From positions 2,010,001-2,042,000 of the forward strand of contig NC_003364.1 in assembly GCF_000007225.1 (NCBI RefSeq): 32,000 nucleotides of DNA, given 5' to 3'. Under the pieces are notes generated by a model. The model was given only the letters and a program-made list of their open reading frames with translations, was not told where the DNA came from and made no database searches. Position 1 is the stretch's first letter. Every line of letters begins with the position of its first letter. Position numbers and translations under genes: made by a program. Source of the DNA: Pyrobaculum aerophilum str. IM2 (lineage in GTDB: Archaea; Thermoproteota; Thermoprotei; Thermoproteales; Thermoproteaceae). Positions 18,580-25,596 of the stretch are shown here, one piece after another.

Positions 18580-18628
18580 ACGACGGTAAATATAAAGCGA
18601 AGCCCCGGTAGCTCAGTCCGGCAGAGCG
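18570..18628 (+). repeat. Promoter plus 5' tRNA segment, copy 1 (near-identical to 28983-29041)
   Basis: The blocks acttaaaaacacgacgg, aaatata, gcga and gccccggtagctcag are shared with only a few substitutions and one 1-nt indel. Confidence 0.8.
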
Positions 18629-18700
18629 GCGGGCTGCAGACCCGTAGGTCCCGGGTTCAAAGGCGGCTTTGCCGCCGAATCGATCCCGGCCGGGGCTCCA
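18602..18700 (+). tRNA. tRNA-Cys (anticodon GCA) with a roughly 22-nt non-canonical intron in the T-loop; encoded CCA
   Basis: Hand-folded. The acceptor pairs GCCCCGG/CCGGGGC, and the D arm is GCUC-AGUCCGGCA-GAGC. The anticodon arm is GCGGG-CUGCAGA-CCCGU. The T stem CCGGG/CCCGG is interrupted: UUCAA [aggcggctttgccgccgaatcg, about 18661-18682] AU. The discriminator is U73, as expected for Cys. Confidence 0.85.
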
Positions 18701-19158: not shown

Positions 19159-19214
19159 CTCCCTCCTGTTGCTGAAGATGTGGTTCAGCCCAGCCGCCGC
19201 GGCTATGCCTGTGG

Positions 19215-19490
19215 CTACGGCGATGACAGGCGCCTCGGGGCGGGTATTGGCTTGGGGGGAGTCGGCGGAGGAGGCTCAACGTAAATCCACCCTGCGATTT
19301 TAATTTGCGCCAACGTGGGGTTGCTACACACAATATTGACAGTGGCGGGGCCTTGGAGCGCCAAAGGCTCTGTCGCGTTACATAGCGGTGGTAGAGATGG
19401 TTTTACAATAACTGTGGAGTTAGGCGGCACTGGTACGGTAAATACCCAGAGGGATAAGGGAGTTAGGAGCAATAAAACAGTATAGTTCAC
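19215..19490 (-). CDS. Small secreted/exported protein with a Pro-rich C-terminus
   Basis: The N-terminal signal-like helix is MNYTVLLLLTPLSLWVF and the C-terminus reads EPPPPTPPKPIPAP. The TATA-like box aaaatataaataac lies about 24 nt upstream of the GTG start. Confidence 0.5.
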   Translation of the reverse strand: MNYTVLLLLTPLSLWVFTVPVPPNSTVIVKPSLPPLCNATEPLALQGPATVNIVCSNPTLAQIKIAGWIYVEPPPPTPPKPIPAPRRLSSP

Positions 19491-19528: not shown

Positions 19529-19873
19529 TTACTTTCTTTGGGTATAGTTTAATAAATAGTAAAATGACGGAGTTATGTATTTCATTTTTGTTAATTGTAA
19601 TATTTTCGGGGGAAGTTGCTCGGCCAGCTGTCTTATTTTCTCTGTTGCTATATACTTCTTCTCTTTTTTAGATAAATCAAGCGAGGTTTCTTCGTACTCC
19701 ACTAGATAGCCCTCCTCTACTAATTGCCTCACGGCCTCCTCAACAGTAGTGATGGGAATGTCCGTTTTAATTCTCATCTCCTCCTTGGCGATTATAACCA
19801 TAGAATATATTGTATGTATATCTGCGTTTGTCAAGACGGAGGCTACAGAGGCGACCAGTTTTTTAATATCCAC
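19529..19873 (-). CDS. Small wHTH-like protein downstream of the ParA-like gene (partition-adaptor position)
   Basis: The 114-aa ORF contains the segment TVEEAVRQLVEEGYLVEYEE, typical of a winged-helix recognition/wing region. The TATA-like box gtatagtataaatag lies about 24 nt upstream of the GTG start. Confidence 0.55.
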   Translation of the reverse strand: MDIKKLVASVASVLTNADIHTIYSMVIIAKEEMRIKTDIPITTVEEAVRQLVEEGYLVEYEETSLDLSKKEKKYIATEKIRQLAEQLPPKILQLTKMKYITPSFYYLLNYTQRK

Positions 19874-19926: not shown

Positions 19927-20595
19927 CTATTCTATCCACCTGGAGCGGGTAACTCTTTTCAACTCTTGTAGCAAATATTCTGCCAGTTTTGTCACCGGCT
20001 TTGTATAAAATTGCCCCCGTCTATTATAATAGTCTAGAGTGGCTGAAAACGGTATTTTCACAACGGCGCCGGGGTATTCTATTCCCCTTTCGTGTTTATT
20101 TAGAGCAATTATTAACTTTCCGTCGAAAAACTTTTTTATAATAGTTATAGGCTTTGTACAATCTTCACATCCCTCTACCACTAAAACTATTAAATCGGCC
20201 TTGTCTAGGCCGAATGTTTCAATGGGCGTTATCCTTGAGAGTTGATACATGTCAAGTACCACTACATCTATTGAATTTTTCACTATGTTCTTCCTGACGG
20301 CATCTGTGAGGTTTTGAAAGATCTCTTCCCAGTTTTCTATTCTCCATACCGAGGCCGGGTCAATTGCTATAGGTATTACAAACAAGTTTTTCACTCTTGC
20401 GTCTCTATAAGCCTCTATAGTTGGGGTAATATTTTCAATGTTTATTAACGGCGCAGGAAAAAACCTAGACGCCCCTCCTCCTAGATCTATAAGTAGTACA
20501 TTAAGTGGGAGAGCCGCCGATACATTGACGGCGAGCGTGGTCTTGCCAGCGCCGCCTTTACAACTCGTGAAGGCAACAGTCCCTGTTCTTATCAT
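19927..20595 (-). CDS. ParA/MinD/SegA-family P-loop ATPase
   Basis: The deviant Walker A motif CKGGAGKTT is present near the N-terminus, along with Walker B-like VVVLDM. The length is 222 aa. The ATG lies 3 nt after the stop of the frame-corrected upstream gene (tgataaATG). Confidence 0.85.
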   Translation of the reverse strand: MIRTGTVAFTSCKGGAGKTTLAVNVSAALPLNVLLIDLGGGASRFFPAPLINIENITPTIEAYRDARVKNLFVIPIAIDPASVWRIENWEEIFQNLTDAVRKNIVKNSIDVVVLDMYQLSRITPIETFGLDKADLIVLVVEGCEDCTKPITIIKKFFDGKLIIALNKHERGIEYPGAVVKIPFSATLDYYNRRGQFYTKPVTKLAEYLLQELKRVTRSRWIE

Positions 20596-20598
20596 TTA

Positions 20599-21031
20599 TC
20601 ACGGCTGTGCAGCTGGGCGACACTTCTCTGCAAATATAGCCACTAATGAGGCCAGTTTGCTGTTAAAACGCTCGGCGAGTTTTACTAAATCCTCGGGGGA
20701 CATGGACTTGCTCAGGGCCTCTATATGCGGCTCTTCTAATAAGTCTATGGTTTTTAAAAATGACGTCGATCATCCTGTCATTTATTACAAGCGGCGTGGC
20801 CTTGGGGGCGATTAAAAACCTGACAAACGTCCTCTCCTCTGGAGGCAGTTTCGCGATAGTTGATGCCACATAGCGCATAAACTGGCCTACGTCTGTTGCC
20901 TCTTTTGCGACAACTGCAGTTATTTCTTGTAGCGAAGCCCCCTCTGCTGTTCTTGCCTCTTGAACGGCTTCCGCGACTTCTCTTTTAGGTTCCTCTTTTT
21001 TCTCGCCCACGATAGTCCTGAACTTTTCCAT
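20599..21031 (-). pseudogene. Hypothetical protein with an apparent +1 frameshift at a T5A5 run
   Basis: The track ORF (20663-21031) ends ...IDVIFKNHRLIRRAAYRGPEQVHVPRGFSKTRRAF*. The +1 frame from the tttttaaaaa run (20751-20760) reads FLKTIDLLEEPHIEALSKSMSPEDLVKLAERFNSKLASLVAIFAEKCRPAAQP*. That reading is much more protein-like and ends right at the ParA start. Confidence 0.5.
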
Positions 21032-21070: not shown

Positions 21071-21532
21071 TTATGCGGTAATAAGGAATAACGGCGATAA
21101 GTCGGAATATAGCCGTTTATAGAAATTTACTAGCCTCATTGCCGTGTCCCATAAATCATTTAATTCTTTTACAGAGTCAAACAACTCGTCTAACGTGAGG
21201 TGAGCGGCGCGGCCCTCCTTTACGTCTTCTAACCTGGCCCGTAGCTTTTCAATGACAATTTCCGACTCTCGTAGGAGAGTCTCCAGCCTCTCTCTTATTT
21301 CCCTTAAGCCCAGTTCTTCCATCTCGGGAACTCTTGTCGAGAGCCTTTCGACTACTTCAGCCAGCCTTCTGCCCTCGCCCTTGAGATATCCCTCTGCTGA
21401 GTCTACAACTTTTGTTAATGTCTCATAGACAGATGCGTTGAACTGTTGCATTGTGGAAATGTGTTGCTCGGAGTTTTTCAACAGCTCATTGATAAAAACG
21501 GCGTCTCCATATTTCCTCACATATCTCTCCAC
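21071..21532 (-). CDS. Hypothetical alpha-helical/coiled-coil protein (153 aa)
   Basis: The sequence is rich in E/R/L heptad-like stretches (LREIRERLETLLRESEIVIEKLRARLEDVKEG). GTG start, with ctataaaaac upstream. Confidence 0.6.
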   Translation of the reverse strand: MERYVRKYGDAVFINELLKNSEQHISTMQQFNASVYETLTKVVDSAEGYLKGEGRRLAEVVERLSTRVPEMEELGLREIRERLETLLRESEIVIEKLRARLEDVKEGRAAHLTLDELFDSVKELNDLWDTAMRLVNFYKRLYSDLSPLFLITA

Positions 21533-21560: not shown

Positions 21561-23318
21561 TTAGAGGCATGCTTTGTGCGGACTATATTTCTGGATTACA
21601 TCAGAATAGCCGGCGCCGGCAAGGGCTATCTCCAGTTGCCTCAAAGCCAGGCACGGGGTTTTTCTAGCTAGCTTTGTGGCGGAGGCAACTCCGACTTCTA
21701 CTACGATATTAGCACATCTCGCGCCGCATTTTTCATATATCAGCGAGGCATCTCCCACAGCCTCTATGTACTTGTCTAATAAAGCGCCGTAGTCCTCGCC
21801 CAATTCAACGGCAGTTACCAACGCCTGGGCTAATAACTCCCCCGGGACTATATAGGAGTTTTGCACAGTTGCCAACGCCAGTTTTTTTGTAATGGGGCTG
21901 CCCAACCGCAAGGCGGCATCTATATAGTCTTTAAATACCCTTAAATCAGTCCTTCCCCCTTCCGATGCCTCATACAAATAGTTCAAGACCTCTATCCACC
22001 CCCTTTCCCCGACTTCCTCAGCCCGAAATCCGGCGTAGTATTCAAGGCCGCTTTTGAGCGATGGAGGTAGCTCCACGCTGAGTCTCTCCGGAGTTAATAT
22101 CGCTTTAATAATTACATCGGGCAAGGCGCCGTGCACGCACAAGGGCTTAATTTTCCCCAAACAGGGGTTTCCGCCTCTGGCAATGGCGGCTAGGGCCTTA
22201 GCTAAATCGTTGTTGGCCTCATGCGCAATTACATATGCCTTTACTAAATTTCTGAGGCTCACCTCGCTAGGTTTATATCCGCATTGGACGGCGACTTCCT
22301 CCGACGCCTTTGTTAAGGCCTCGTTGTAAAGAGGTCCTAGCTCTCTAGACAACGCCCGTAAATGCCAATGGGGTTTCATTAATTTTTTTAGATCCTCCGC
22401 AGTTTGCAGTGCAAGTATCTTTACGTATTCCTTGTGGGGATCTGGTAACTTATTAATAAGAGATATAAGTTTTTCTAATGTTCTTACTTTAACTTCAACA
22501 GTTTCATAATAAATCGCCAGGCTTGCCAAAGGGGGCGGGAGCCCTCTGCTGTGTAGCGTTTGGATAAAAGCCTTTGCCTTACTGCAACTAGGGGCGTATA
22601 CGGCCTTGGCCAATGCTGTTAGCTTCTCCACGTAAGCCATCTTAGCCTTCTCAACTAAGTTTGCAGGGTGCTCATCGCAGAACTCAAGAGATTTGGCTGC
22701 GCTATATGCGATGTAGTACATTCCCTCACCTAGTTGTGAAATGCGGGACGAGATCTCTTTAACGTAGTCCTCGCCGCAGTAGACGTCACTGTTTTTCGCA
22801 AAAATCTCGCCGGCTATTGACTCCTCTGCCGTTACTACTATATTATCGTAAAGCCGCAACTCCTTCTTACACCTCTCCGCCAAGTCAAAGGGCAAGACGA
22901 TAACTACTGGATAACCGTTTTTTCTCACGTATTCAGCTCTTGCTAAAATTCTATTGCAATTATCCCTCCACAGCGTTGCATATTCAGACCAAATCTCGGG
23001 CTCTGCGTAGAATTGCAACGGCACTGCGTCAAAAACGGCAAATGCCCACTTTGCTCTTTTGGCTATTCTTAAATACTCGGCGAAATTAGAAGTATCAGAG
23101 GCCAAGTCTATCACAGCGCCGCCTTTTTCTAATGCGGAATACGCTATTGTTAACGCCAGCACCGACTTCCCAACTCCGTGTAAGCCCTTTAATAAAACAG
23201 ACTCGCCGCTAGAAAGCCTTTTCTCAAGCTCTTTCATTAACGGAATATTAACAATAGCCACCTCCCGCTCTCCTAGCCTCATCTGCAACTCGCCGCCGCG
23301 GCGGCTGAAAAGATGCAC
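21561..23318 (-). CDS. P-loop NTPase with a large all-helical C-terminal domain (STAND / archaeal-ATPase-like architecture)
   Basis: Walker A is LKGLHGVGKSVLALT and Walker B-like is WAFAVFDAV. These are followed by about 400 aa of helical, repeat-like sequence. The TATA-like box gttaaatagg lies about 25 nt upstream of GTG 23318. Confidence 0.7.
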   Translation of the reverse strand: MHLFSRRGGELQMRLGEREVAIVNIPLMKELEKRLSSGESVLLKGLHGVGKSVLALTIAYSALEKGGAVIDLASDTSNFAEYLRIAKRAKWAFAVFDAVPLQFYAEPEIWSEYATLWRDNCNRILARAEYVRKNGYPVVIVLPFDLAERCKKELRLYDNIVVTAEESIAGEIFAKNSDVYCGEDYVKEISSRISQLGEGMYYIAYSAAKSLEFCDEHPANLVEKAKMAYVEKLTALAKAVYAPSCSKAKAFIQTLHSRGLPPPLASLAIYYETVEVKVRTLEKLISLINKLPDPHKEYVKILALQTAEDLKKLMKPHWHLRALSRELGPLYNEALTKASEEVAVQCGYKPSEVSLRNLVKAYVIAHEANNDLAKALAAIARGGNPCLGKIKPLCVHGALPDVIIKAILTPERLSVELPPSLKSGLEYYAGFRAEEVGERGWIEVLNYLYEASEGGRTDLRVFKDYIDAALRLGSPITKKLALATVQNSYIVPGELLAQALVTAVELGEDYGALLDKYIEAVGDASLIYEKCGARCANIVVEVGVASATKLARKTPCLALRQLEIALAGAGYSDVIQKYSPHKACL

Positions 23319-23392
23319 AAGTTATTATGACGTGGCCTATTTAACTACGGGATTTTAAATCATATATTAAAAAACAAGACCGATAAATTGTT
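23319..23392. promoter_or_regulatory. 74-nt divergent promoter region
   Basis: The A/T boxes ctatttaac (minus-strand gene) and atatattaaaaaac (plus-strand gene) each lie about 25 nt from their respective GTG starts. Confidence 0.5.
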
Positions 23393-24172
23393 GTGTCCAC
23401 CGCATTAGACGCTGGAATTGCCGGTAGCCGTTTTATCCGCTTGTTACTTAAACAGGGAGAGGTGAAGTCAGACGACACGCTGGGGAGGCTTTTCCACTTA
23501 CTTGCGGAGATGGGATATTTCGTAAAGAGGGGCGATAGGTATAAAAGGACAAGTAAAATACCGCCCTCTATATCAAGCAAGCTTTTAGGCTCTGTTTTTG
23601 ACGACATCATTATCCCCTATTTAATAGGAGAGGCCATTAAGCCTAATTTTGAGGCAGTATTTGCGGCAACGGCGTTATTCCAGCCTTACAGAATACGGGC
23701 GGCGAGTAAATTCGGAAGGGGGGCCCTGGCTCTTGTAGCTGGCTGGTTGCCGTGTGGGTTCTCCACTGAGATATCCGCCGCCACTGGGGCCGACTTGGTA
23801 ATACAAGACGAGCATTGGGAAGTTTTGGCGCTTGAGGAGGAGAGGATATCAATCCTCCCAGTTGAGCTAGAGCGCGTTGGAGAGGCCATGGCCGCCTCCG
23901 TATTTGTCAGCTTTGAGGCAGGCCGCCTCGACGAATTGCCAGCGGATAAATATGGCAAGTTTTCCTTCGCTGTAATTTGCCACAGAGCTGTTGACGTCAA
24001 AAAGGCGCGTGAATTAGCCGACAGAGTGTATAGAGTCAACTTCTCAGGGGCGTTGGGAATATTTGCAGATCTCTTGTCAGAGGCAATGGGGCTGGGTAGG
24101 GGCGAGGAGTGCGGGCGGGGCGGCAGGGTCTTGTACAAAGACTCGGAGATCTGCCTCACTGATGTTTCGTAA
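23393..24172 (+). CDS. Hypothetical protein with an N-terminal wHTH-like region and an uncharacterised C-terminal domain
   Basis: The N-terminal segment is wHTH-like: LGRLFHLLAEMGYFVKRGDRYKRT. The remaining roughly 190 aa contain no motif I recognise. The stop overlaps the GTPase start by 11 nt. Confidence 0.6.
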   Translation: MSTALDAGIAGSRFIRLLLKQGEVKSDDTLGRLFHLLAEMGYFVKRGDRYKRTSKIPPSISSKLLGSVFDDIIIPYLIGEAIKPNFEAVFAATALFQPYRIRAASKFGRGALALVAGWLPCGFSTEISAATGADLVIQDEHWEVLALEEERISILPVELERVGEAMAASVFVSFEAGRLDELPADKYGKFSFAVICHRAVDVKKARELADRVYRVNFSGALGIFADLLSEAMGLGRGEECGRGGRVLYKDSEICLTDVS

Positions 24173-24644
24173 GCGCGAGTTGAAGACTATTGTATTCTTG
24201 GGAGTTGGCGGCGTTGGAAAAACGACGTATATCTACAGATTACTGGGGCTGGCCAGAGCTCCTAGAGTCACGAGAAAGCCTGGCGTGTATGAACTGCAGT
24301 ATAGGGGCGTTGAATTGTATATAGTGGATACGCCTGGTCAATATGCGGTTGAAGTCGCCAGGAGATATTATGAGGCAATTAAGACGTTTGGCACTAAGCT
24401 GGATTTAATAGTCTACATGTACAGCGCAGCGGACCCCTTCACTCTCTACTCGTTATTTGACATAGAGCAGTGGGTCTCCAGGTATCCTCCTCATAATAAA
24501 ATACTCATTGGGAACAAGCGGGATTTAGCCGAAGAGCTCGGGTATCTGGTCGAGGGAGACGACGTGGCAATTGCGCTAGGCGCTAAAAGGCTTTACTACA
24601 CCTCGGCTTTAAAAACGACCCGGCTGAGCTTTTACAACACTTAG
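24162..24644 (+). CDS. Ras-superfamily small GTPase
   Basis: All five G motifs are present in order: G1 GVGGVGKT, G2 Thr in VTRKPG, G3 DTPGQ, G4 NKRD and G5 TSALK. The start is set at ATG 24162 (MFRKRELKTIVFLG), because the track's 5' extension reads as low-complexity sequence. Confidence 0.8.
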   Translation: MFRKRELKTIVFLGVGGVGKTTYIYRLLGLARAPRVTRKPGVYELQYRGVELYIVDTPGQYAVEVARRYYEAIKTFGTKLDLIVYMYSAADPFTLYSLFDIEQWVSRYPPHNKILIGNKRDLAEELGYLVEGDDVAIALGAKRLYYTSALKTTRLSFYNT

Positions 24645-24654
24645 TGCAAAATCT

Positions 24655-25596
24655 CTAGAACAGCTGGAGAAGCCACGGGGCCTTGTCTCTTTGCGGCTTA
24701 AGCATTTTTAACATTCTGGCCTCCTTCACGCTTTCCTCCTTCCTCCGCTGAGAGATTTCATCCCCCCTCGGCGGCGCCTTTATTTCGCTGGGCTTTCCGC
24801 CCGCCATATTTACAAATGTAAAGAAACCATCGGCCACTCTCCTCCTGCCTCTGGACCCGAAGGCCTCTACCACAAACCCAATTTCTATACTTGTAGAACC
24901 CACGTGCGTCACGCCCGTTTTGACCTCAACTATGTCGCCGACATAAATAGGCCTTCTGAAGACAATGCTATTGACGCTTGCAGTCACGTAAACAGTGGGG
25001 TAATAGCTGAAGGCCTCTACAAATGTCAACTCGTCGAGTTTAAACAGAAGCTTGCCTCCATATAACAACACTCCGTCTAAGGAATCCTCGGGCATGGCTA
25101 GAAAACGGCTAACTGAGTGCCAATCGGCGTTTACAGCAGGCCCCTCGGCTTTTAAAACGGCGTCGGCCTTGGCCCTCCACTCGTCGAAATATCTGCAAAG
25201 CTCCTCCCAGCCGGAGTCGCAATTGAGGGATTTGCCCACGGGCGTCGGCCTCCCCTCTTGGTTTATTTTGACAAATATCATCCTCCCGGCGGTGGCTAAG
25301 TTCAACTCATCGCCTCTTTTTACATATGACTCAACTAATACGCTGAGGCTGGATCTCCTCACTCCCACGACCCAGCCTCTAAACATGAGCAAGTAGCCGA
25401 GCCTCACAGGGGAGATGAAATGCGTCTTGTCCAAAAACCCCAATACCACGTCCCCCTCTGCGAAATTCATAGCGGCGACGGTGCCCACGTCAGCTAGCCA
25501 CTGTAGCATGTACCCCCCGTATAAAGTGCCGAGTGGGTTTACGTGCCTGTTAGACACAAGCCTGACGGCCTCCACGAGAGTTTCGGAGACGTACAC
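24655..25596 (-). CDS. Acyl-CoA thioesterase with tandem hotdog domains
   Basis: The first domain carries NPLGTLYGGYMLQWLADVGTVAAM. The second domain is LLYGGKLLFKLDELTFVEAF...IVFRRPIYVGDIVE. This layout is typical of Acot7/BFIT-type double hotdog enzymes. Confidence 0.8.
   Translation of the reverse strand: MYVSETLVEAVRLVSNRHVNPLGTLYGGYMLQWLADVGTVAAMNFAEGDVVLGFLDKTHFISPVRLGYLLMFRGWVVGVRRSSLSVLVESYVKRGDELNLATAGRMIFVKINQEGRPTPVGKSLNCDSGWEELCRYFDEWRAKADAVLKAEGPAVNADWHSVSRFLAMPEDSLDGVLLYGGKLLFKLDELTFVEAFSYYPTVYVTASVNSIVFRRPIYVGDIVEVKTGVTHVGSTSIEIGFVVEAFGSRGRRRVADGFFTFVNMAGGKPSEIKAPPRGDEISQRRKEESVKEARMLKMLKPQRDKAPWLLQLF

Follow-up and report, generated by a model that had tools for sequence, protein, structure and literature searches.

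What does a Ras-like small GTPase do in an archaeal chromosome in which its gene overlaps that of a protein without a recognized family? The question is raised by a locus in the 32,000-nucleotide (nt) stretch of the Pyrobaculum aerophilum str. IM2 chromosome (NC_003364.1, positions 2,010,001 to 2,042,000), to which we refer as the window and whose numbering we use throughout. Two plus-strand genes are concerned. The first encodes a 259-residue protein, MT259 (23393..24172, GTG start), and the second a small GTPase of the family known as Rup2 (24162..24658 in its intact frame). Comparison of the sequences from many related loci indicates that the linkage of the two genes is real and old. We propose that they form a cognate module of a GTPase and a partner with a methyltransferase (MT) fold, the partner acting as regulator or effector, and we regard the case for this proposal as evenly balanced. 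The GTPase family is known already, and what is new is a partner of a new fold class.

The initial annotation of this DNA, made from its letters, placed the ATG of the GTPase gene (24162) inside the last 11 nt of an upstream open reading frame (ORF) of 259 aa, and both features are present as described. The stop of the MT259 gene and the start of the GTPase gene share 24162..24172 on the plus strand (...ACT GATG TTT CGTAA), an overlap that would couple their translation. The junction gATGtttcgTA(A/G), with the identical 11-nt overlap, was seen in all 11 of the junctions of this type that we inspected, down to about 64% protein identity. We call this order, partner and then GTPase, pair 1. It is found in P. 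ferrireducens, P. neutrophilum, Pyrobaculum sp. WP30, a P. calidifontis-like contig, several metagenome-assembled genomes (MAGs) and many metagenome contigs (adjacency in the window and in our loci L001, L004, L009, L011-L013, L026-L031, L034, L035 and L104). Absences in one genome scan were not counted, because that scan missed several named Pyrobaculum species that carry the gene. In one MAG the promoter and start region of the partner gene, TATATTAAAATACCCGCGGCCCCATATAGACGTGTCCACCACTCTTGAC, is tandemly duplicated (L013:9820-10018).

The two families also meet elsewhere. Pair 2 consists of a 161-aa Rup2 paralogue (46-49% identity) and, immediately downstream, a partner paralogue of 274-285 aa (34-39% identity), the two genes overlapping by 4 nt, so its order is reversed relative to pair 1. 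It is present in about 20 Pyrobaculum loci, the genomes sampled including P. oguniense TE7, Pyrobaculum sp. WP30 and two MAGs, and lies in a housekeeping neighbourhood that differs from that of pair 1 (ribosomal protein S15, deoxyhypusine synthase and a family-4 glycosyltransferase). The same neighbourhood is found in nine Thermoproteus loci, where the two genes are convergent and overlap by 17-20 nt. Orthologues of clade C adjoin a partner gene in about 30 of 30 loci. Since all three arrangements keep the genes adjacent, we attribute the linkage to selection rather than to inherited order. The contrary explanation, that the adjacency is inherited order without function or reflects a mobile or defence island, seems to us very improbable: the gene order has been rearranged at least twice, yet the pair stays adjacent and overlapping. 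Other evidence on this explanation comes from the neighbouring operon and is given with it below.

By its sequence, the GTPase is a genuine member of the Ras superfamily and belongs to Rup group 2. The complete, ordered set of motifs reported initially can be read in the letters: G1 GVGGVGKT (24201-24224), G2 Thr37 in switch I, G3 DTPGQ (24327-24341) with the Ras-like Gln, G4 NKRD (24513-24524) and G5 SAL (24603-24611). These motifs show no variation in 16 family members and paralogues, G3 having the Ras-like form DxxGQ. The protein exceeds the gathering thresholds of four Pfam families, namely MMR_HSR1 (33.7; threshold 21.9), PduV-EutP (31.8; 21), Ras (26.4; 21.6) and Arf (23.4; 22.3), and scores 41.0 with the NCBIfam model TIGR00231 small_GTP, slightly under the cut-off of 42.5. 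A profile check had been named at the outset as a way to refute the small-GTPase call, and the call withstood it.

Rup group 2 was named by Wuichet & Sogaard-Andersen in 2014 as a group confined to Crenarchaeota, of which a genome may carry up to six copies, with Ras-like catalytic motifs and without experimental data (PMC4316618). We place the window GTPase there because it is 73% identical to the P. neutrophilum protein P0024 and because of the published membership list, in which Tneu_1252 (165 aa) and P186_1238 (166 aa) are Rup Group 2 entries (supplementary table S2 of PMC4316618). These two entries agree in organism and length with the P. neutrophilum (165 aa) and P. ferrireducens (166 aa) orthologues, and we infer from the agreement in organism, length and genome position that P0024 is Tneu_1252. 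The protein has a single G domain, falls in the range of 150-240 aa, is restricted to the Thermoproteaceae and is multi-copy, as in Rup group 2; all named homologues, of the GTPase and of the partner alike, come from Pyrobaculum or Thermoproteus. Exact-sequence look-ups of P0005 (P. islandicum) and P0131 (clade D) returned no record. A 2024 preprint by Vargova et al. uses the term "Thermoproteaceae-specific Rup2" for the group (10.1101/2024.02.28.582541). The window GTPase thus resembles Rup2 in being a single-domain protein (~150-170 aa) with Ras-like G1-G5 motifs including the G3 Gln, found in Pyrobaculum and Thermoproteus only. It differs in its surroundings: we see a recurrent partner family with an MT-like fold and a recurrent STAND-like nucleoside triphosphatase (NTPase), whereas the 2014 survey reported no conserved proteins in the neighbourhoods of Group 2 Rup GTPases (PMC4316618). 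In the literature searched, with most subscription journals outside its coverage, we found neither a described Rup2 partner with an MT-like fold nor a recurrent STAND-like NTPase neighbour. The idea of an undescribed system, raised when the locus was first read, therefore does not extend to the GTPase family and stands for its partner.

The length of the GTPase needs a correction. The ORF is 160 aa as written in the window (ending at 24644), but alignment identifies it as a frameshifted copy of a 165-aa gene. The near-identical strain locus L104, which encodes the intact 165-aa GTPase P0021, served as the reference: over 127 aligned nt the two are identical except for a G missing from the window at 24614..24615 (plus strand), and the last 14 codons are frameshifted. 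The intact tail ...SALKDDPAELLQHLVQNL of P0021 becomes ...SALKTTRLSFYNT before the stop in the window, restoring the G at 24614/24615 gives the translation DPAELLQHLVQNL and a stop, and the frameshift removes the family-invariant Asp after G5. Relative to orthologues, three apparent 1-nt frameshifts lie inside about 6 kb. Besides the one at 24614-24615, there is an extra C in aaaaaCCatagac at ~20748, within a 143-148-aa operon protein, and at ~19190-19275 a 223-aa transmembrane and ArsR-like winged-helix protein is split into ORFs of 91 and 112 aa. They may be due to sequence quality or to strain decay; two of the three sites adjoin A-runs, which suggests sequencing error or homopolymer-associated mutation.

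What kind of protein is the partner? Pfam and NCBIfam scans gave no family for MT259 at E<=1 and none for its distant homologues and paralogues at E<=0.1, and neither Pfam Methyltransf_2 nor Dimerisation matched MT259. The family is small, with about nine genuine clusters among 1.84 billion representative proteins in a hidden Markov model (HMM) search. We predicted its structure with AlphaFold2 (AF2) from an alignment of 17 homologues (predicted local distance difference test, pLDDT, 80.2; predicted template-modelling score, pTM, 0.81). In the model MT259 begins with a winged helix (aa 1-52, 23393-23548). A linker of two long helices (aa 63-104, 23579-23704) joins it to a Rossmann domain that is class-I methyltransferase-like (aa 112-257, 23726-24163). 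All three parts are encoded on the plus strand, and the nearest relatives of MT259 in structure are the family-2 O-methyltransferases. The Rossmann domain has seven strands with a terminal strand 6-7 beta hairpin, which is the class-I methyltransferase topology. The best Foldseek match in the PDB is 3mcz (E=7.5e-8, probability 1.0, query-normalised TM-score 0.47), followed by 2r3s, 5i2h and human ASMT (4a6d) and then by other class-I methyltransferases; the alignments to the family-2 enzymes cover ~300 columns at ~12% identity with E=1e-6 to 1e-8. The top 50 PDB matches are all of the methyltransferase fold or related Rossmann-type transferases.

The winged helix-turn-helix-like N-terminus proposed at first is recovered in the model as a winged helix, and the C-terminal domain that could not be placed then now has a fold. 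The remark that the partner does not look like Roadblock was right, as scans of the partner and of five operon proteins gave no Roadblock or longin match and Foldseek gives methyltransferases. The description of the partner as DNA-binding is unsupported. Its best matches are family-2 O-methyltransferases, in which the N-terminal winged helix is a dimerisation domain. MT259 shares with them the order of winged helix, helices and class-I Rossmann domain, and differs from them in its ~12% identity, in a motif I of the form AGW(L/F)PCG, and in its invariant Cys, His and Arg residues and flexible loop, which the O-methyltransferases do not have.

The conserved residues of the Rossmann domain bring up an enzymatic alternative. 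Strand 2 still ends in an acidic residue, in the segment DLVI(L/Q/V)DE: D139 is near-invariant in Pyrobaculum pair-1 orthologues, and the sequences read from the wider partner family have D or E at position 139 or 140. Cys121, which follows strand 1, does not vary in the wider family; after strand 4, Cys196 is invariant or nearly so and Arg198 near-invariant in the wider family, and His197 is invariant in Pyrobaculum pair-1 orthologues. In canonical class-I methyltransferases these positions, at motifs I and IV, flank the cofactor pocket. The partner could accordingly be imagined as an active S-adenosylmethionine (SAM)-dependent methyltransferase of RNA, protein or a small molecule, with the GTPase as an assembly or checkpoint factor for the same substrate, by analogy with ribosome-assembly GTPases and rRNA methyltransferases, which show functional interplay. 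The class-I topology with its strand 6-7 hairpin, the acidic D139/E140, the invariant Cys and His/Arg around the pocket, a canonical-motif methyltransferase-like protein encoded in a related GTPase cluster (clade E, below) and the translation-related genes beside pair 2 would all fit. We nevertheless find this alternative improbable. The glycine-rich loop after strand 1 is the family-invariant LVAGW(L/F)PCGFS, which replaces (E/D)xGxGxG, and none of the members is matched by a methyltransferase profile of Pfam or NCBIfam. Searched against PDB sequences, the partner-family profile has as its best match the NAD-binding domain of adenosylhomocysteinase, with a non-significant E=0.18. The canonical methyltransferase of clade E has no detectable relationship to the partner family, and Rup2 proteins are Ras-like switch GTPases outside the ribosome-assembly GTPase families (PMC4316618).

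One segment of MT259 could have a part in the proposed module of GTPase and regulator or effector. The loop at aa 148-170 (23834..23902, plus strand), with the consensus LE(E/D)ERxSxLP, is the most conserved non-core segment of the protein and the sole stretch of the model with pLDDT <50. E148 and P156 are invariant and R151 is near-invariant in both paralogue groups. Conservation together with low pLDDT is a pattern typical of segments that fold upon partner binding, and the loop is a candidate for a partner-binding or arginine-finger segment.

How far does the pairing extend within Rup2? Clade-E GTPases are flanked in about 25 loci by members of another family, F3 (~200 aa, Cys-rich, N-terminus MLCEWL..GA.CS). 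Relative to clade E2 the F3 gene is divergent (about 20 loci); in three E1-like loci it follows the GTPase gene and overlaps it by 4 nt. An hhalign comparison of F3 with the partner family (F1) gave E=8.2e-5 and 61% probability over 154 columns of the Rossmann part, with colinear motifs (VGVDWDxCPLGF ~ VAGWLPCGFS; RYGAEAVVTCLRRP ~ KYGxFxxAIxCHR; AEAVAKALG ~ ADLLSEALGLG). Local hhalign with redundant alignments was much weaker (E=0.015), and intermediate F3-like sequences match the partner HMM directly at E=1e-3 to 1e-1. Homology between F3 and the partner is probable on these alignments. In a rough neighbour-joining tree the partnered clades occur in all three main Rup2 branches, with the unpartnered clades B, C' and D beside partnered ones, which suggests that pairing was ancestral and that later duplications moved away from it.

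The F3 genes of the E2 loci overlap by 4 nt with a downstream gene for a degenerate GTPase-like protein of 207 aa (GPPGSGKST, DxPxG, GSRAD), and the next gene encodes a 304-aa protein with the canonical methyltransferase motif ILDVGAGT and Pfam matches below threshold. The resulting four-gene cluster, a GTPase divergent from the F3/207-aa/304-aa operon, is seen at L053:2781-5468 and also in L074-L076, L080-L082, L086 and L089. The 304-aa protein was tried as a relative of the partner and rejected (E=0.13).

Several observations weigh against the proposed module. The P. arsenaticum/P. oguniense lineage keeps the partner and its divergent operon without an adjacent GTPase, only a 64-nt spacer separating the partner from a thioesterase gene, and in one MAG the partner gene stands by itself, next to an ABC-transporter cluster and in an unrelated setting. 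The notion of a dedicated partner put forward initially is thus borne out by the 11 conserved junctions, the reversed pair 2 and the convergent Thermoproteus pair, but not by these lineages. A close relative, the GTPase of clade B, is encoded elsewhere in the P. arsenaticum and P. oguniense genomes and might act in trans where the pair-1 GTPase was lost. The window's own GTPase copy is frameshifted, as described above, and MT259 has a replaced glycine-rich loop and no match to methyltransferase profiles. Clades B, C' and D have no methyltransferase-like neighbour: C' lies beside an MscS-like protein and a P-loop NTPase, and the neighbour of clade D is a small P-loop NTPase that, from its sequence, we take to be THEP1-like. 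The partner and GTPase trees, again rough ones, are not obviously congruent, since the Thermoproteus partner groups with pair 1 and its GTPase with pair 2. For F3, the AF2 prediction was unstable, a single model of the five being confident, and the Foldseek search had no match with E<1e-3, what it returned being generic folds of the Rossmann or methyltransferase-like type (3c3p, 1r74, 4m73 and a GRAS domain); because structure and fold search were uninformative, the relation of F1 and F3 rests on hhalign and the intermediate HMM matches.

A third explanation comes from the other side of the partner gene. The initial annotation noted a 74-nt gap to a divergently transcribed P-loop NTPase operon and suggested co-regulation, and the gap is there (23319..23392, the minus-strand ORF starting at 23318). 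Alignment of this spacer from nine Pyrobaculum loci shows a conserved GTG start of the partner and two genus-conserved TATA-like blocks: TATTTAAC at ~23338-23346, in a position that suits the minus-strand operon, and ATATATTAAAAAA at ~23363-23375, ~20-30 nt before the GTG as for a leaderless transcript. From their positions they are putative back-to-back promoters. The same alignment shows no other conserved element and no palindromic operator.

The operon contains five conserved genes, all on the minus strand. The first encodes the P-loop NTPase of 585 aa (range 585-590; 21561..23318), with a STAND/AAA_16-like N-terminus (sub-threshold Pfam nSTAND3 and AAA_16) and a long helical C-terminus. 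The second encodes a syntenic 153-aa helical or coiled-coil protein with a weak ApoLp-III-like match (21071..21532). The third, for a small protein of 143-148 aa in orthologues (20602..21031), is the one split by the apparent 1-nt insertion at ~20748, its ORF in the window being 122 aa. The fourth encodes ParA222 (19927..20595), a 222-aa ParA/MinD-type ATPase with the deviant Walker A motif CKGGAGKT, which matches a PHROG ParA-like family at E=2e-10; the NCBIfam model ParA_partition covers its N-terminal P-loop region only and scores far under the cut-off, and ParA222 has no match among PDB sequences at E<=0.01. The last conserved gene encodes a syntenic 114-aa winged-helix protein (19529..19873; PHROG transcriptional regulator, E=0.005), whose match to AspA of the pNOB8 partition system is marginal (E=0.024). 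Wherever a species has the operon, the five-gene block adjoins the partner gene, whose opposite side is invariably taken by the thioesterase gene; the far flank varies.

MT259 might therefore work mainly with the divergent operon and the GTPase be dispensable, for example if MT259 were a ligand-sensing winged-helix transcription factor on the back-to-back promoters, with a Rossmann domain that binds a nucleotide or SAM-like ligand. This seems rather unlikely to us, although it is the strongest of the alternatives. The partner and the operon stay together also in species that have no adjacent GTPase, the promoter architecture of the spacer is conserved, and the basic wing of MT259 (GYF-KRGD-Y-RT-K) does not vary. 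The GTPase linkage, on the other hand, is kept by pair 2 and by the Thermoproteus pair in another neighbourhood without such an operon, and one MAG has the partner without the operon. A transcription factor would also be expected neither from the best structural matches, which use the winged helix for dimerisation, nor from a spacer without a palindromic operator.

The link between Rup2 GTPases and this type of NTPase is seen a second time. A full-length paralogue of the P-loop NTPase, F7 (641-644 aa; 25% identity over 537 aa, E=2e-23), is convergent with a clade-C' GTPase in at least nine loci, with an overlap of 4-6 nt in most and an MscS-like membrane protein divergent on the other side (L066:5435-7369, minus strand; also L051, L052, L065, L067, L068, L070, L090 and L099). 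This linkage of F7 with clade C' is a second, independent Rup2 association. A functional link between the GTPase and the P-loop operon gains support because F7 adjoins another Rup2 clade, and the connection to the divergent operon drawn initially is in line with both this and the conserved synteny.

The operon also bears on the mobile or defence island explanation. STAND-like NTPases and pairs of ParA with winged-helix proteins are common in mobile and defence loci, the G+C content is somewhat lower over 17-23 kb, and the left flank of the block differs between species. The searches point the other way. PADLOC gave no significant match (the P-loop region matched mad8 at E=7.7e-5, further matches were weak, and the partner had none), and PHROG gave generic matches only, the ParA-like one for ParA222 and weak ones to ATPase and regulator families. 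The tblastn searches of the P-loop NTPase against a phage collection and of the partner against a plasmid collection were empty. The block, furthermore, holds the same chromosomal position beside the thioesterase gene across the genus.

How would the module of GTPase and MT-fold partner work? The two proteins would be made in matched amounts and form a complex, probably a partner dimer with the GTPase, by analogy with the family-2 O-methyltransferases. The MT-fold protein would be a dedicated regulator or effector of the GTPase, in the place that MglB has for MglA. An arginine might be supplied, as in a GTPase-activating protein, by the LE(E/D)ER-S-LP loop (R151) or by R100. Alternatively, the conserved pocket (Cys121, Cys196-His197-Arg198) might be gated by the GTP state. 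The module would then give an on/off input to the neighbouring NTPase/ParA machinery, with spatial organisation as a plausible guess at the process concerned.

Other known systems invite comparison. MglA-MglB and the actinobacterial conservons (CvnA-D) likewise have a prokaryotic Ras-superfamily GTPase beside a dedicated partner, as a switch with its cognate regulator, and the conservon also includes a small winged-helix-like protein. The locus here differs in its partner, which is not a Roadblock or longin protein, in having no sensor kinase, and in its GTPase, a Rup and not an MglA, which retains the G3 Asp and Gln. The operon, for its part, resembles SegAB and the AspA-ParB-ParA system of pNOB8 in ending with a ParA/MinD-type ATPase and then a small winged-helix protein, the AspA match being weak; it differs in that ParA222 has no PDB sequence match and in its additional STAND-like NTPase and coiled-coil proteins.

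Rup2 proteins are among the few Ras-like switches in archaea outside Asgard and figure in schemes for the origin of eukaryotic small GTPases, and a conserved, translationally coupled partner offers a concrete handle on their function. If an MT-fold protein does regulate, or is regulated by, the GTPase, a new fold would join the few partner domains of small GTPases. A point at which the switch may act is suggested by the links to the STAND-like NTPase and the ParA/MinD operon, which also bear on the cell biology, especially the division, of this lineage. In the Thermoproteaceae neither FtsZ nor a standard ESCRT has been found and the division machinery has been called uncharacterised (PMC10936438). 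One could go further and speculate that the MT-like Rossmann proteins F1 and F3 are an unrecognised class of Ras-like GTPase regulators or effectors, ancestral to Rup2 and acting with the STAND-like NTPase and ParA/MinD operon in the control of spatial organisation or division of the rod-shaped Thermoproteaceae, an extension that we hold to be improbable. The scope is in any case narrow, covering one archaeal family with function inferred throughout.

Some minor observations concern the surroundings of these genes. Rfam and tRNA scans gave nothing in the region of the pair. At 18602-18657, between a pyruvate phosphate dikinase gene and the left end of the operon, there is a short Rfam tRNA-like match (31.2 bits; gathering threshold 29) where ARAGORN predicts no tRNA. 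Upstream of the pair-2 GTPase and on the same strand, two loci (L007:5668-6004 and L008:5668-6004) encode the family-4 glycosyltransferase, a 71-72-aa protein with two transmembrane segments by eye, and a 48-59-aa protein that looks like a coiled coil and whose gene shares its last 4 nt with the start of the GTPase gene; the context of pair 2 may be membrane-associated.

The closest paralogues of the window GTPase are those of clade B (L005:3317-5921, L006:4074-5934 and L033:2954-4941). Their neighbours are 195-252-aa proteins with a basic N-terminus and a hydrophobic stretch, pilin-like or secreted in appearance, and a 410-413-aa protein. Finally, a divergent Rup2-like GTPase is preceded in two loci (L060:2529-3523 and L097:4462-5455), with an overlap of 4-14 nt, by a 165-aa protein that carries the HCxxGxxR signature of protein-tyrosine and dual-specificity phosphatases (VHCVGGMGRT).

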